Sequence record: OL960581
Direction: 5' to 3' (one strand)
Origin: Escherichia phage vB_EcoM_SA20RB
Length of the DNA: 64,000 nt
Of the stretch, positions 7,651 through 30,491 are shown one piece after another. A model generated the notes under the pieces. That model did not search any database. It was given only the letters and a program-made list of their open reading frames with translations, and had not been told where the DNA came from. The position numbers were made by a program, and so were the translations under genes. How positions within the stretch are numbered: the first letter of the stretch is position 1; the number at the start of each line of letters is the position of its first letter.

Positions 7651-8121
7651 TTAATCATGTTTCCACACCCCATCGGTATTTGACCAAAGTCGCTGATTAT
7701 CTGATCCTCGCCACAGCTTTTTGGTAGGAAGATTTTTCTCATACTTCCCATCAATAATAACATCAACATATTTAAGCATTTCTAGTTGTTTAATATCTTC
7801 AAATTTATATCCTGTCCACAACCAAATGCTTTTATTGGAATAAAGATTTTTTACTGTTTGAACCACAGAGTGAATAACATCTCGGTTATCAGGATAGAGA
7901 GGGTCTCCTCCAGTTATAGTTAATCCTTCTATATAATCATTATTCAAACATTCAATTAATTGTTCTAGTGTTTCACCAGTGAATGGAACACCATTTCTAG
8001 CATTCCATGTTGATTTATTATAACACCCTTCGCATTTATGCAAACAACCTGTAACGAAAAGAACTGTCCTGCATCCAGGACCATTAACAAAGCAGCATGG
8101 GTATATTCTGTCATAATTCAT
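7651..8121 (-). CDS. nrdG: Anaerobic ribonucleotide reductase activating protein (radical SAM)
   Basis: 156 aa; CxxxCxxC cluster in GCLHKCEGCYN; length matches T4 NrdG. Confidence 0.92.
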   Translation of the reverse strand: MNYDRIYPCCFVNGPGCRTVLFVTGCLHKCEGCYNKSTWNARNGVPFTGETLEQLIECLNNDYIEGLTITGGDPLYPDNRDVIHSVVQTVKNLYSNKSIWLWTGYKFEDIKQLEMLKYVDVIIDGKYEKNLPTKKLWRGSDNQRLWSNTDGVWKHD

Positions 8122-8950
8122 TTATATATTTCCAATTATAGCCTTCAACACTTTTACGTTCGCCATTTAAACATTTTAAAATATTTCCTTTGCTAGAAAT
8201 ATTAAAATATTTTGCTGCGTCTGGTATATAATTAAATGTTTTTAAAAGAACACCATCTTTATATGCGCCAAATAAATTAAGAGTATATTTTTCTCGAAGA
8301 CGCTGATGTTTCCTTTTCATAACCTCAGGATTTGCATACGCCAACCTCAATGAATTTCTATGTTTTTCTTTTACTTCAGGTTTTTGCATTGCTAACTTAG
8401 TTAGCCTGGAAATTTTATTTCTAACTTCGTCAGTTTTCATTGCATTTGACAAATTTAATAAAGTTTTATTTCTAACTTCAGGTTTTTGCATTGCTAACTT
8501 AGTTAGTTCTCTATGTCTTTTTCTAAAATCGTCATCCTTCCATATATTTTTCGATAATTTTGACATAGAGCGGTGAAATAATTCCTTTTCACTGGAATAC
8601 AATTTAAAAATTTCATCCAATTCATCCGCATTAAATCTATCGGTATTCGAGTTTATCATTCTATGAAAGGCATAACACATTTTACTATTGCTTGTTTTAG
8701 CTAAATAGTAATGAGCTAACGCATGGTCATAATATGACAAATTAACAATATTCCATTTATCTGTTTTATATTCAGGAAATATAGATTTGGGAAGCACGTG
8801 ATGTGCTTCCGTTTTTCCTTTTATTTTAGGATTATTATAATTTTTTGTTATCAAATCAACATATGACAATAGTAAATCATTATTTTCTTCAAATATTAAA
8901 GCTAATTTATCATTCACAAAATCGCAAGGATAAAATCTATCGTAATTCAT
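8111..8950 (-). CDS. mobC: HNH-family homing endonuclease-like protein (MobC-like) between nrdD and nrdG
   Basis: 279 aa; HNH-like EAHHVLPKS...NIVNLSYYDHALAH; repeated TKLAMQKPEV module; same position as T4 mobC. Confidence 0.75.
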   Translation of the reverse strand: MNYDRFYPCDFVNDKLALIFEENNDLLLSYVDLITKNYNNPKIKGKTEAHHVLPKSIFPEYKTDKWNIVNLSYYDHALAHYYLAKTSNSKMCYAFHRMINSNTDRFNADELDEIFKLYSSEKELFHRSMSKLSKNIWKDDDFRKRHRELTKLAMQKPEVRNKTLLNLSNAMKTDEVRNKISRLTKLAMQKPEVKEKHRNSLRLAYANPEVMKRKHQRLREKYTLNLFGAYKDGVLLKTFNYIPDAAKYFNISSKGNILKCLNGERKSVEGYNWKYINEL

Positions 8951-10230
8951 TGGTGTTTAACCCTATGCATGATTTCTTTATTTTTTCCGAGATTAAATCC
9001 GCGTTCATTCGGATTTCCCAAATAACCACAAGTTCTTCTTATTGTGTTCATCTTTTTAGGATCAGTTTCTCCACAAATAGAACAAACAAATCCGTTTTCA
9101 GTAGGAGTCATTTCATGTGTACTTCCACATGTAAAACATTTATCTACTGGCATGTTAACACCAAAATAATCTAAATGTTGTGCAGCATAATCCCATACAG
9201 CCTCAAGACCTTTTAAGTTATTTTTCATATCAGGAAGTTCAACATAAGAAATGTGACCACCTGTCGCAATGAAATGATATGGGGCTTCGCGAGAAATCTT
9301 TTCAAATGGAGTGATATTTTCTTCTACTGAAACATGGAAACTATTAGTGTACCAGCCTTTATCAGTAACATCTTTTACACTTCCATATTTTTCAGTATCA
9401 AGTTTACAGAAGCGATAACAAAGGTTTTCAGCAGGTGTAGAATACAAGCTAAAAGCAAAACCAGTTCTTTCAGTCCACTGCTTAAGACGAGCATTCATTT
9501 TAGTTAAAATTTCCTGTCCAATATCACGACCGACAAGAATATTCAATTCGTGAATACCAATGTATCCTAGGGACACTGAACTTCTACCGTTTTTAAATAA
9601 CTCAATTATGTCGTCATCAGGTTTAAGACGAACCCCGAATGCACCTTCTTGGTAAAGAATAGGAGCAACAGTAGCTTTAACTCCTTTTAAGGAACTAATT
9701 CTACACATCAATGCTTCAAAACATAAATCCATTCTCTCATTGAACAATTCGGCAAATTTCTGTTCATTGAACTGTGTTCCAATATAAGAATCTAATGCGA
9801 TACGAGGAAGATTCAGTGTTACAACACCAAGATTATTACGTCCATCAAGAATTTCATTACCAGTCGAATCTTTCCATACGCTCAAGAAACTACGGCAACC
9901 CATTGGAGAAACAGGAACAGATGAACCAGTGATAGCTCTATTGTTCTTAGCTGAAATAATATCAGGATACATCCTTTTGCTTGCACACTCTAGAGCAAGC
10001 TGCTTAATATCATAGTTCGGATCGTCTTTGTAAAGATTAACACCTTCTTCAACGAACATGACAAGTTTAGGGAAAATAGGAGTTATCCCATCACGACCAA
10101 GACCTTTGATACGATTTTTCAGAATTGCTTTCTGAATCATTCGTTCAGTCCAGTCAGTTCCCGTACCAAATGTAATTGTTACAAAAGGCGTTTGACCATT
10201 AGAGCTGAAAAGTGTATTTACTTCATCATT
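8947..10230 (-). CDS. nrdD: Anaerobic ribonucleotide reductase NrdD, exon 2 (5' boundary approximate)
   Basis: C-terminal RRTCGYLG glycyl-radical motif and CxxC...CxxC zinc site; the ORF's first ~16 codons (TTG start) are intron read-through. Confidence 0.88.
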   Translation of the reverse strand, partial: NDEVNTLFSSNGQTPFVTITFGTGTDWTERMIQKAILKNRIKGLGRDGITPIFPKLVMFVEEGVNLYKDDPNYDIKQLALECASKRMYPDIISAKNNRAITGSSVPVSPMGCRSFLSVWKDSTGNEILDGRNNLGVVTLNLPRIALDSYIGTQFNEQKFAELFNERMDLCFEALMCRISSLKGVKATVAPILYQEGAFGVRLKPDDDIIELFKNGRSSVSLGYIGIHELNILVGRDIGQEILTKMNARLKQWTERTGFAFSLYSTPAENLCYRFCKLDTEKYGSVKDVTDKGWYTNSFHVSVEENITPFEKISREAPYHFIATGGHISYVELPDMKNNLKGLEAVWDYAAQHLDYFGVNMPVDKCFTCGSTHEMTPTENGFVCSICGETDPKKMNTIRRTCGYLGNPNERGFNLGKNKEIMHRVKHQ

Positions 10231-11273
10231 ATATTCAGCATGAGTCGCAAATTCATGCCCGTTTATATGAAACAACAAAATTTGGATAGTCCATAGATAT
10301 GCAACGTTCTTTTATAGTGCTAGGATGAAAATTTAGCGCTTTAGCTGCTTCTATATAAGACGTATACTTAATACCGTCAACAACCACATATTCAGGAACT
10401 TTATGAATAGTAGTCTTAATACTCAAAACAAGAGGATGAGTTTCGACTTCACTTTCAGTGCAATTTAAATATTCCGCTGCTTTTTTAAAACTTCTAAAAG
10501 TTTTATTTTTAAGCTTTATCGATACTTGTTTTTTACTTTTTCGACTATTGATATTATTTTGCACATGTTCCTTAGATCTTCCGTTTTTAGCATAATATTC
10601 AGCTACAGAAGATTTTATATTGTTTTTATGAGATTCGGATAACACTTTACCCTTATGAGCATCTCTTAATTTTTGAATATGTTCTTCAGTATCCGGATGC
10701 TTATAAAACTTTTTACCGCCTATGGATTTATTTAAACATTTTTTGCTATAAAAATATTTACGTATGACCTCTTCTTCATGTTTTAATGCATCTTTATAAC
10801 TATCAAATGTTTTTAAAATTATCCATTTAGTAGGTGTATCAGTTTTTAAGCGTTCATTTATATACTTAGATGACGTTGTGTAAGTTTTCCAGTTTGTGGG
10901 CTTGTTTTTAATTGTTCTAAATTTTTTATAACCGATATAAATGTCGCCATTAGAAAACTTAACTAAGTATGTAAATGCGTCTTTATCTTTTATTTTAGTA
11001 CAACGTCTTTTTATCCATTTCATTGTTTCACCTCGTATTCATAAGATAATCTTATTTATACAAGATGACTGCTGCATGTCGCCATGCAGATTAGACTATA
11101 TCTTCATCTTTCGATGCCGGCCGTTTCGAATAGCATTAGCTTCTATTCTACACCGTTACATTCATCACGGTTAGTCGTTAGGCATTTAGTTCAAAAGAAC
11201 ATTTAGCACGGGATTGTCTACTAGAGAGGTTCCCCGTTTAGACCGGTTTTACATGAGCCTGAATTAAATTAAC
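10231..11273 (-). mobile_element. Group I self-splicing intron in nrdD (sunY-type), boundaries approximate
   Basis: nrdD frame broken by a stop at 11264; about 1 kb insert carrying an endonuclease ORF; ribozyme-core-like sequence CUAAACGGGGAACCUCUCUAGUAGACAAUCCCGUGCUAAAUG on the minus strand near 11150-11250. Confidence 0.8.
10253..11023 (-). CDS. Intron-encoded GIY-YIG homing endonuclease (I-TevII-like)
   Basis: 256 aa inside the nrdD intron; N-terminal FTYLVKFSNGDIYIGYKK GIY-YIG module; T4 I-TevII is 258 aa. Confidence 0.8.
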   Translation of the reverse strand: MKWIKRRCTKIKDKDAFTYLVKFSNGDIYIGYKKFRTIKNKPTNWKTYTTSSKYINERLKTDTPTKWIILKTFDSYKDALKHEEEVIRKYFYSKKCLNKSIGGKKFYKHPDTEEHIQKLRDAHKGKVLSESHKNNIKSSVAEYYAKNGRSKEHVQNNINSRKSKKQVSIKLKNKTFRSFKKAAEYLNCTESEVETHPLVLSIKTTIHKVPEYVVVDGIKYTSYIEAAKALNFHPSTIKERCISMDYPNFVVSYKRA

Positions 11274-11809
11274 TCATACGCCTGGAATGCATCGTATACG
11301 TCTTTTTCTGTTTTAGACTGGGCATAATTCAACGCATCAGCGATTTGCCATTTTTCTGCATCCTCAATATGTTTTGCATAGGTGCGTTTAACATAAGGAG
11401 AAAGTACTTTATCTACATTAGCAAAAGTCGTTCCGCCGTACTGATGTGAAGCAACCTGTGCAGTAATTTGTGCCATAATTGCAGTAGCAACGCCAATTGA
11501 TTTAGGAGTTTCAATCTGTGCATTGCCGAGCTTAAATCCGTTCTCAAGCATTCCTTTTAAATCTACTAAACAGCAATTAGTAAATGGAAGAGCAGGGGAA
11601 TAATCAATATCGTGGAAATGGATAATTCCGCTTTCATGCGCTTTCATAATAAAAGACGGGACCATATTTTTGGCAATGTGTTTAGACACAATACCAGCCA
11701 TAAGGTCCCGTTGAGTTGGAAAAACACGAGAATCTTTATTAGCATTCTCGTTCAAAAGGTCTTTATTAGTTTTATGAATCAATCCTTCAATTTCTTTTTC
11801 AATTGTCAT
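11274..11809 (-). CDS. nrdD: Anaerobic ribonucleotide reductase NrdD, exon 1 (3' boundary approximate)
   Basis: N-terminus MTIEKEIEGLIHKTNKDLLNE; ORF runs into the intron until the stop at 11264. Confidence 0.85.
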
Positions 11810-28492: not shown

Positions 28493-28813
28493 TTATTCTT
28501 TAAATCTAATCAATTTATTCATAGACTTTGTAACTTCTGCACGAACCTCATGTAGGTTTTTAAGCTGTTCAAGACGCTGCTCATAGTAAGCAATTTCATC
28601 TTCTTCGAGACAGTCCTGTGAATCTTCTTTAAGATAACGTGCATAGTCCTGGAAAGCTTTACGGACTACTTCCTGGAAGTCATCAAGACTTTGAATTTTC
28701 TTAGGAGCAACAGATACACGACGAGGGGCAGTATAATACTCATAACCAAACCCTGCGCTTAATTGGGCCATTAATATTTTTCCTCTGGTTGGAACACAGC
28801 ACGACAAGCCCAC
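28493..28813 (-). CDS. Hypothetical protein (vs.3 position)
   Basis: ORF-track 106 aa. Confidence 0.5.
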
Positions 28814-29037
28814 ATACTGGCTTCTTTGAGTTTCGTTTTAGCAATAGTTAACTGATCGAGACTTTCAGCATAATTCTTCGCGAATTCACAGTCTTCACAA
28901 TTATTTAGTGCTTCCCAGAATTCATCATACAAAGCATCAAAGATAAGTCCTAAACGAACTTCAGCGTCTTTGATAGCATTCACTTTACCGATTTTCTCTT
29001 CAGTATGTGGTTTATAACCTTTAATGTCTTCAATCAT
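28771..29037 (-). CDS. Vs.4-position protein, possible Acb2-like cyclic-oligonucleotide sponge (by synteny)
   Basis: 88 aa helical acidic protein, second ORF after regB; assignment from memory that T4 Vs.4 is Acb2. Confidence 0.45.
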
Positions 29038-29251
29038 ATTTTACTTCCTCACCAGTACCTAAATCATATTCAACTAAACGAATAGGCTCATGAATGCCAT
29101 AACCCTGAACAGAAATTTCTGTCGTAGGATAAATTCCATCAATATCACCCATATTCCATGCTTCATTAAATTGCTGTTCGCCTGAATTACTAAACCACTC
29201 GGCGAAAGCATTTAGCACATCTTTAGAACCTTCAATAATTATCTTTGCCAT
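29030..29251 (-). CDS. Hypothetical protein (vs.5 position)
   Basis: ORF-track 73 aa. Confidence 0.5.
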   Translation of the reverse strand: MAKIIIEGSKDVLNAFAEWFSNSGEQQFNEAWNMGDIDGIYPTTEISVQGYGIHEPIRLVEYDLGTGEEVKYD

Positions 29252-29613
29252 TACAAACTCTCAGTAAAGGTACGAGCGATAACGTCGCGCTGCTGTTCCG
29301 GAGTTAGAGAGTTAAAGCGAACTGCATAACCGGATACACGGATGGTCAGCTGCGGATATTTTTCCGGATGCTTAACTGCATCTTCCAGAGTTTCACGACG
29401 CAGAACGTTAACGTTCAGGTGTTGACCACCTTCAATTTTAACTGTAGGCTGTTGCTCAATTTCAATTTCACGGGCATGCAAACCATAGAAAATTTCTGGG
29501 TCTACAAAAGAGTCCTCTTTAAAGGTTTTAGAGACAATAATTCGTGCTTGAATACCATCTTCAAAATAAATAGTACCTTTATGTGTGCCTTCAAGAATTT
29601 GATATGCTTTCAT
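29251..29613 (-). CDS. GrcA/YfiD-like autonomous glycyl-radical cofactor (vs.6 position)
   Basis: 120 aa; C-terminal [56 protein letters not shown] is a glycyl-radical domain signature. Confidence 0.8.
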
Positions 29614-29620
29614 ATAAACC

Positions 29621-29848
29621 TCAATTAGAAAATAAATTTATCCAAGATTGTTCTTTAATTAAAAATGGCTCAGAATCATATGCCATTAAACTCTGTGTGA
29701 TTAGTCCTTTAAAAGGCCCATCAATAAATTCCATGGTAAAATATGGAATTTTATTCATTAGCCGTGCATTAGGAGCCGTGCACAAAACTCTGCATCCTTT
29801 GAATACGCCTTTTTGTAATTTGTATTGCTTAGGATAAAATTCGCTCAA
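29621..29848 (-). CDS. Hypothetical protein (vs.7 position)
   Basis: ORF-track 75 aa. Confidence 0.5.
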
Positions 29849-29948
29849 AATGTTATTTTTTTTGCCAAAATTTCAAAATGATTCACCAATTTATTTTTAA
29901 TAGTTTTTGGTGAAAAATAAAGATATTCGAAAAGCTGAGTGTCTGTCA

Positions 29949-30491
29949 TCATTGCATTCCGATTACGAAAAACTGCGGACGAGTAATACCACCAATGCAG
30001 CATTTACTATTGCAGCAGTGTTGCACAGTTTCAATATGAATATCGTAAATTTTATCCATATCAGGAGATTTAACAGGCTCATCGATTATATACAAAATTC
30101 GAGAAAGCGATAAACCTCTGAACTTGCTACCTCTATTACCAACAAAACTACGGACAGAATCAGTAAATAAACGGAATCGAATATCATCGCTAGAATAACG
30201 AGAAAATTCTTTTTTAATGCGGCCCGCAGAAATTTTAGCGTAAGCTGAAGTATTAGAAAGAACAATAACTGTTCCACCATCATACAACCAATTAGCGGCA
30301 AAATTAGTTACTGCAGTTGATTTACCAGATTGTCTGCCACCATCTAAACGAAGTGTACAATATTCTTTAAATAAATGCGACGAATCAGGTACATAAAATC
30401 CACTATTACAAATTTCTTCTACTCTAGCATCAGAATGGTGTGTAAAAGCATTCATCAGGGATAGATAAGGACCAGTTAAAAATGTTCTCAT
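29949..30491 (-). CDS. Small P-loop NTPase-like protein (Walker A GGRQSGKST, Walker B-like ILYIIDEP)
   Basis: 180 aa; motifs read from the translation; sits where T4 has vs.8/denV. Confidence 0.5.
   Translation of the reverse strand: MRTFLTGPYLSLMNAFTHHSDARVEEICNSGFYVPDSSHLFKEYCTLRLDGGRQSGKSTAVTNFAANWLYDGGTVIVLSNTSAYAKISAGRIKKEFSRYSSDDIRFRLFTDSVRSFVGNRGSKFRGLSLSRILYIIDEPVKSPDMDKIYDIHIETVQHCCNSKCCIGGITRPQFFVIGMQ

Follow-up and report, generated by a model that had tools for sequence, protein, structure and literature searches.

Why should a T4-like phage carry a gene for a small glycyl radical protein, which enzyme does the protein serve, and where does the gene come from? These questions were raised by an open reading frame (ORF) in the 64,000-nucleotide stretch of Escherichia phage vB_EcoM_SA20RB (sequence record OL960581) that is here, in its entirety, referred to as the window. 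An earlier note, made from the DNA letters alone, had taken the ORF for a GrcA/YfiD-like spare part of the type that repairs oxygen-damaged pyruvate formate-lyase (PFL). Our main reading, which we hold with a probability of about 0.88, is that the ORF is T4 gene vs.6 encoding protein Y06I, a phage version of the GrcA/YfiD spare part, and that the gene has a mosaic history.

The ORF encodes 120 amino acids at positions 29251-29613 on the minus strand, starts with an ATG located 6 nt 3' of a Shine-Dalgarno GAGG, and its stop codon overlaps the start codon of the following gene, vs.5, in the sequence TAATG. The window phage is T4-like (Tequatrovirus) and the ORF is T4 gene vs.6, protein Y06I. The vs.6 region is approximately 98% identical in DNA to many Tequatrovirus genomes, the gene itself is 98.9% identical to that of T4 across all 363 nt, and the protein differs from Y06I of T4 GT7 by a single residue (Q54 instead of P54). 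Residues 1-120, i.e. the full length, match phrog_1209 (E=5.7e-63), and RefSeq phage records call the product 'autonomous glycyl radical cofactor GrcA'. In phage AR1 the gene order is tk, tk.4, vs, vs.1, regB, vs.3, vs.4, (vs.5), vs.6, vs.7, vs.8, ip4, e, nudE, and the location of vs.6 between vs.7 and vs.5 in this tk-vs-regB-e early region is conserved in AR1, T4, JS09 and Klebsiella phages. By this position and by the match along its whole length, the ORF belongs to the T4 vs.6 orthologue group (phrog_1209). Neither a promoter nor a terminator of its own was found adjoining vs.6 above shuffle expectation which, with the tight packing of the genes, is consistent with co-transcription of vs.6 in the vs cluster.

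Two neighbouring genes deserve a comment. The gene on the 5' side, vs.7 (29621-30003, minus strand), is broken into two ORFs of 52 and 75 amino acids by an A-run near 29850-29860 that is 2 nt longer than in T4 GT7 and AR1 (A8 vs A6), reflecting either a homopolymer sequencing error or a true frameshift/pseudogene. Two genes 3' of vs.6, vs.4 (28771-29037, minus strand) contains a Pfam Acb2/Tad1 hairpin domain (8e-20), a family of phage cyclic-nucleotide sponges that counter the CBASS and Thoeris defence systems.

The earlier note had read the C-terminal 60 residues as a glycyl radical domain, and this was borne out by domain and structure searches. Residues 60-101 match the last 42 positions of the Pfam Gly_radical model (E=2.5e-18, 67 bits with a cutoff of 22.2), and no further Pfam domain was found in the 120-residue product. 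The best match in the PDB is 6OWR, 'Autonomous glycyl radical cofactor' (E=9e-42), and in this alignment residues 61-120 of vs.6 are all identical to residues 68-127 of E. coli GrcA. The second-best PDB matches are to the C-terminus of PFL, with vs.6 residues 58-120 corresponding to PflB 697-759 (E=5e-26) and the domains being approximately 80% identical. Absence of the radical glycine, which would have spoken against the note's interpretation, was not observed: the predicted glycyl radical residue Gly95 (codon at 29329-29331, minus strand) lies in a radical loop of the PFL type (R92-V93-S94-G95-Y96), and in the translation it aligns with G102 of GrcA and G734 of PflB (residue numbering as in PMC12338860).

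Assignment to the GrcA family rests on the small stand-alone size, the PFL-type RVSGY glycine and a homologous N-terminal half. The NCBIfam equivalog TIGR04365 is the top-ranked family for vs.6 and is covered from position 25 to 126 of its 126 profile positions, but the 154.9 bits obtained fall short of the curated cutoff, set at 170 (E. coli GrcA reaches 234), because the N-terminal half has diverged to only ~31% identity with host GrcA. When profiles of the N-terminal halves from 10 phage and 22 bacterial GrcA proteins were compared with hhalign, a probability of 88% was obtained (E=2.9e-6, 42 columns, 31% identity), and an ARxxVxK…ED…REi.iE..P.V motif is conserved between the phage and host halves. 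The profiles thus point to a weak but significant homology, and the idea that vs.6 is a host fragment fused to an unrelated phage ORF was rejected on account of this profile-profile match. Among 10 T4-like phages 26 of 59 columns in the N-terminal half are invariant. The most fitting description of the protein is that of a phage branch (vs.6/Y06I) within the GrcA family, the C-terminal domain of which is identical to that of the host.

At the DNA level the two halves of the gene are strikingly different. The 5' half (29434-29613, minus strand) has a GC content of 0.33 and no DNA match in any of 5426 complete E. coli genomes. The 3' half has a GC content of 0.48, and all 5426 genomes match vs.6 exclusively at gene nt 179-363, with their grcA genes at 96.8-98.4% identity. 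The alignment is dominated by a 175-nt run of perfect identity to E. coli grcA (29261-29435, minus strand; gene nt 179-353), which extends from TTGAAGGTGG… through …ACTGA, encodes the structured glycyl radical domain, and is bordered on its left side by essentially random similarity. The last three codons and the stop (29251-29260, minus strand) are of phage type, with GAG AGT TTG TAA corresponding to GAA AGC CTG TAA in E. coli, and the right edge of the host-identical tract is found at these codons in every phage examined. As compared with E. coli grcA the 3' half is 98.4% identical and has synonymous differences in 3 of 60 codons, all of them in the last three codons, and the numbers for other hosts are 90.7% and 17/60 for Citrobacter, 86% and 21/58 for K. 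pneumoniae, and 82% and 28/58 for Salmonella. A control search of window positions 17001-42000 (25 kb) against all the E. coli genomes gave matches only to grcA and, at 79.5%, to pflB. The tract is the only host-like DNA within the 25 kb searched, and pflB was rejected as its donor (~80% identity vs 97-98% for grcA).

Within the tract, the codon for Leu103 (29305-29307, minus strand) is CTA in the window and CTG in T4, and CTA also occurs in a rare E. coli allele; grcA of strain 401651 is alone among the E. coli genomes listed in matching vs.6 at 98.4%, the others listed being at 97.8%. A separate conversion, a recurrent mutation and a transfer from phage to host cannot be told apart by this single site.

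The tract recurs in a large number of phages. With full-length E. coli grcA, matches were obtained in 752 phage records, for 630 of which the identity is 95-99%, and the matches always begin at grcA nt 199-202, so that the 5' half is never covered. K. pneumoniae grcA matches 106 Klebsiella-phage records at 95-99% (98.2% for KPV15). The Klebsiella T4-like phages have the same 120-residue gene with a 5' half that is 74% identical in nucleotides to the window, and their 3' half has a GC content of 0.54-0.56 and the signature TLLDAVEHP at the position where the window type reads TLEDAVKHP. For one Klebsiella phage the identity to K. pneumoniae grcA was 93-96%, as compared with 85% to E. coli grcA, and its match to the former included 173 nt at 96.0% with an exact run of 107 nt. 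In a neighbour-joining tree of 170 nt of the tract, Escherichia grouped with Tequatrovirus and Mosigvirus in 299 of 300 bootstraps, and the Klebsiella phage grouped with K. pneumoniae in 194 of 300, which is moderate support.

Comparison of the window with the Mosigvirus JS09 gave nucleotide identities of 71% for the flanking vs.5 and 75% for the flanking vs.7, 88% for the 5' half of vs.6 and 97% for its 3' half, and synonymous differences were seen in 13 of 53 codons in the 5' half vs 4 of 60 in the 3' half (Fisher p=0.016). Similarity thus forms an island at the tract, whether one phage genus is compared with the other or the phage with the host. No near-identical tract was found in phages for the 3' halves of grcA from Salmonella (best 83.8%), Enterobacter (best 88.7%) or Yersinia (best 81%), so that within the phage collection searched the pattern is confined to the lineages of Escherichia and Klebsiella. 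The tracts of Slopekvirus and Pseudotevenvirus reach no more than 79-85% identity with any host sampled, and the range is 67-86% when these are taken together with the homologues from T5-like phages, Krischvirus and jumbo phages. Which type of tract is present goes with the lineage of the phage rather than with the isolation host in its name: the Klebsiella type occurs in Salmonella phage PSE-D1 (97.1%), and the E. coli type is present in Tequatroviruses named after Yersinia (Yersinia phage PST), Salmonella and Proteus (Proteus phage Isf-Pm2).

Some of the public records encountered appear to carry wrong labels. PLSDB lists as plasmids some Klebsiella and E. coli records that have the size of a chromosome (e.g. 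Klebsiella sp. WOUb02, and CP125156.1 with 5.37 Mb), and the assembly of 'Vagococcus sp.' WN89Y contains an enterobacterial grcA at 91% identity.

As to function, only two glycyl radical spare-part proteins have been validated, YfiD of E. coli and Y06I of T4 (PMC8683613), and the spare-part mechanism and the roles of the domains have been described (PMC8683613, PMC12338860). According to PMC8683613, which cites Wagner et al. 2001, the radical of Y06I is installed by the PFL-activating enzyme (PFL-AE), as is that of YfiD, and once activated the protein associates in a complex with oxygen-cleaved PFL, making the enzyme active again in vitro. The proposal of the earlier note that vs.6 is a PFL spare part is hence supported, albeit by biochemistry that was already published; it contains no new idea and, with the databases already naming vs.6 GrcA, adds no knowledge as it was stated. 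The literature searched yielded no in vivo data from infected cells that bear on the function of vs.6. During infection, oxygen would destroy the glycyl radical of host PflB, leading to cleavage of the chain at G734, and the vs.6 protein would bind to the cleaved PflB with its own C-terminal glycyl radical domain placed in the active site. A radical put on G95 of vs.6 by PflA, the radical-SAM activase of the host, would then allow pyruvate conversion into acetyl-CoA plus formate to restart. The likely benefit would be that the fermentative energy metabolism is kept going in the infected cell. Since host gene expression is switched off by T4, the cell would be unable to produce GrcA or replace PflB, which may be why the phage supplies the spare part.

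A different client has to be considered, since the anaerobic ribonucleotide reductase system is encoded in the same window, as the earlier note had correctly pointed out. The activase gene nrdG is located at 7651-8121 (minus strand; Pfam Fer4_12 2.4e-48, Radical_SAM 1.7e-7), and the class III reductase gene nrdD at 8947-11809 (minus strand) in two exons, 8947-10278 and 11264-11809, with Pfam matches to NRDD (1.3e-122 and 1.2e-40) and Gly_radical (1e-25). The nrdD intron contains an ORF for a GIY-YIG endonuclease with NUMOD domains (10253-11023, minus strand; SegE_GIY-YIG 7e-6), and a second NUMOD-like ORF (8111-8950) is situated between nrdD and nrdG. Could vs.6 then serve the phage NrdD as spare part or radical donor, being activated by NrdG and contributing to nucleotide supply instead of fermentation? 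Besides the shared window, this idea is favoured by gene arrangements elsewhere, in that a GrcA-like gene (427-789) is found directly between nrdD and nrdG in the jumbo phage A4 (Asteriusvirus, 355 kb), and in Vibrio phage D479 such a gene (419-790) adjoins and follows nrdB; moreover, an early comparative paper (PMC1524935), with the Pfam hit as its sole basis, put forward a function in nucleotide metabolism. In the lineages of A4 and D479, the placement suggests that the gene is regulated jointly with nucleotide reduction. Against the idea, BLASTP of vs.6 with the NrdD of the window, its radical domain included, detects no similarity (E=1.7), and vs.6 is located ~17 kb away from nrdD, while its own domain is completely identical to that of host GrcA and close to the PflB C-terminus, and PMC8683613 reports PFL-AE as the activase and PFL as the rescued enzyme. 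The spare-part idea for NrdD was rejected on the BLASTP result, and as an explanation of vs.6 we consider it very unlikely. The absence of NrdD similarity and the reported activation by host PflA make the link of vs.6 to NrdD and NrdG one of shared anaerobic context, not a demonstrated partnership.

It could also be envisaged that the phage N-terminal half retargets or alters the host-like domain for something other than simple PFL repair, for example action on TdcE, PflD or YbiW, or sequestration of PflA or PflB that redirects the pyruvate flux of the host. Residues 61-127 of YfiD reproduce the radical domain of PFL, and residues 1-60 are disordered, yet required for binding of cleaved PFL and for efficient activation (PMC8683613), and a diverged phage N-terminal half might therefore behave differently. 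That the invariant columns of this half in T4-like phages are combined with low identity to host GrcA, and that vs.6 scores below the TIGR04365 equivalog cutoff, agrees with such a change of role. On the other hand, the phage and host halves are still homologous over 42 columns, including the conserved motif, the vs.6 sequence gives no hint of an added domain, and Y06I is reported to act like YfiD in vitro (PMC8683613), so that we regard retargeting as improbable. An artefact is the last of the alternatives, i.e. that the near-identity to E. coli grcA stems from contaminating host reads or a chimeric assembly, and a GC-rich run of 175 host-identical nt in an AT-rich phage genome does resemble what a chimeric assembly might produce. 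Identical junctions are nevertheless present in ~630 independently sequenced phage genomes, T4 included, the reading frame of vs.6 is continuous, with its last three codons and the overlapping vs.5 start being of phage type, and Klebsiella phages have an equivalent tract from their own host. The artefact explanation was rejected because the junctions recur across hundreds of independent genomes, and its probability is negligible.

The preferred reading thus remains a phage GrcA with a composite gene. The vs.6 gene is a mosaic, and its host-type tracts are lineage-specific. The simplest reading of its history is that of an old phage copy of grcA, the still-homologous 3' part of which was recently overwritten by host sequence. 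The 5' half would then represent the old, phage-adapted and diverged GrcA homologue, and most of the 3' half (~175 nt) would have been overwritten from host grcA by gene conversion, a mechanism that we infer from the sequence pattern and that would be confined to the stretch where phage gene and host grcA are still homologous. At least two conversions would be required, one giving the E. coli-type tract in Tequatrovirus and Mosigvirus, the other the K. pneumoniae-type tract in the Klebsiella T4-like phages. Such homology-limited conversion fits the left edge that the tracts have in common where the conserved stretch coding for EGGQ begins, and it also fits the phage-type terminal GAGAGTCTATAA kept in JS09, Slopekvirus and Pseudotevenvirus. 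That the 3' half is a recent host grcA patch differing by phage lineage, with the 5' half and the last three codons being phage-type throughout, is in our estimation more probable than not. The conversion may be neutral and not adaptive, because no more than two residues separate the E. coli domain from that of Klebsiella.

T4 is a strictly lytic phage that degrades the DNA of its host. If the proposed history is true, vs.6 provides a clean natural example of repeated, homology-limited conversion from a bacterial chromosome into a lytic phage that degrades host DNA, and the part of the protein that interacts with the host, plugging into PflB and PflA, is kept matched to the current host. If confirmed, the tract could serve as a simple marker for recent recombination between phage and host and for the principal host of a phage lineage, and it would constitute a natural experiment on the need for the glycyl radical plug to match PflB and PflA of the host. 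The novelty of the host-derived tract is uncertain: no description of the tract or its lineage versions was found in the literature searched, and key older papers lay outside that search.

How does vs.6 compare with the known systems? The closest one is Y06I of T4, which has the same neighbours as vs.6 of the window (vs.8, vs.7, vs.6, vs.5, vs.4, vs.3 and regB) and exhibits only strain-level differences, with 2 nt in the 5' half and 2 nt in the 3' half, one of the latter giving the CTA codon of Leu103. GrcA/YfiD of E. coli (6OWR; TIGR04365; IPR011140) shares the two-part layout and the RVSGY radical loop, but vs.6 is 7 residues shorter, lacks the conserved host motif NSFWLLD and, unlike E. coli GrcA, belongs to a cluster of phage early genes, with no promoter to itself. 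The C-terminal domain of PflB (PDB 1H16, 2PFL) is the same fold element as in vs.6 and is the part that is lost upon oxygen cleavage, whereas vs.6 has no catalytic barrel and is only ~80% identical to pflB in DNA. The genes of T5 (T5.056), Epseptimavirus, Krischvirus, Asteriusvirus and Vibrio phages are built in the same way, with a variable N-terminal half ahead of a region containing RVSGYAVRF…RTFT, but their 3' halves have only 67-79% DNA identity to any sampled host grcA, and they therefore carry no recent host-derived tract. Their genomic contexts are also unlike that of vs.6, the GrcA-like gene being located beside tRNA genes in T5 and between nrdD and nrdG in A4.
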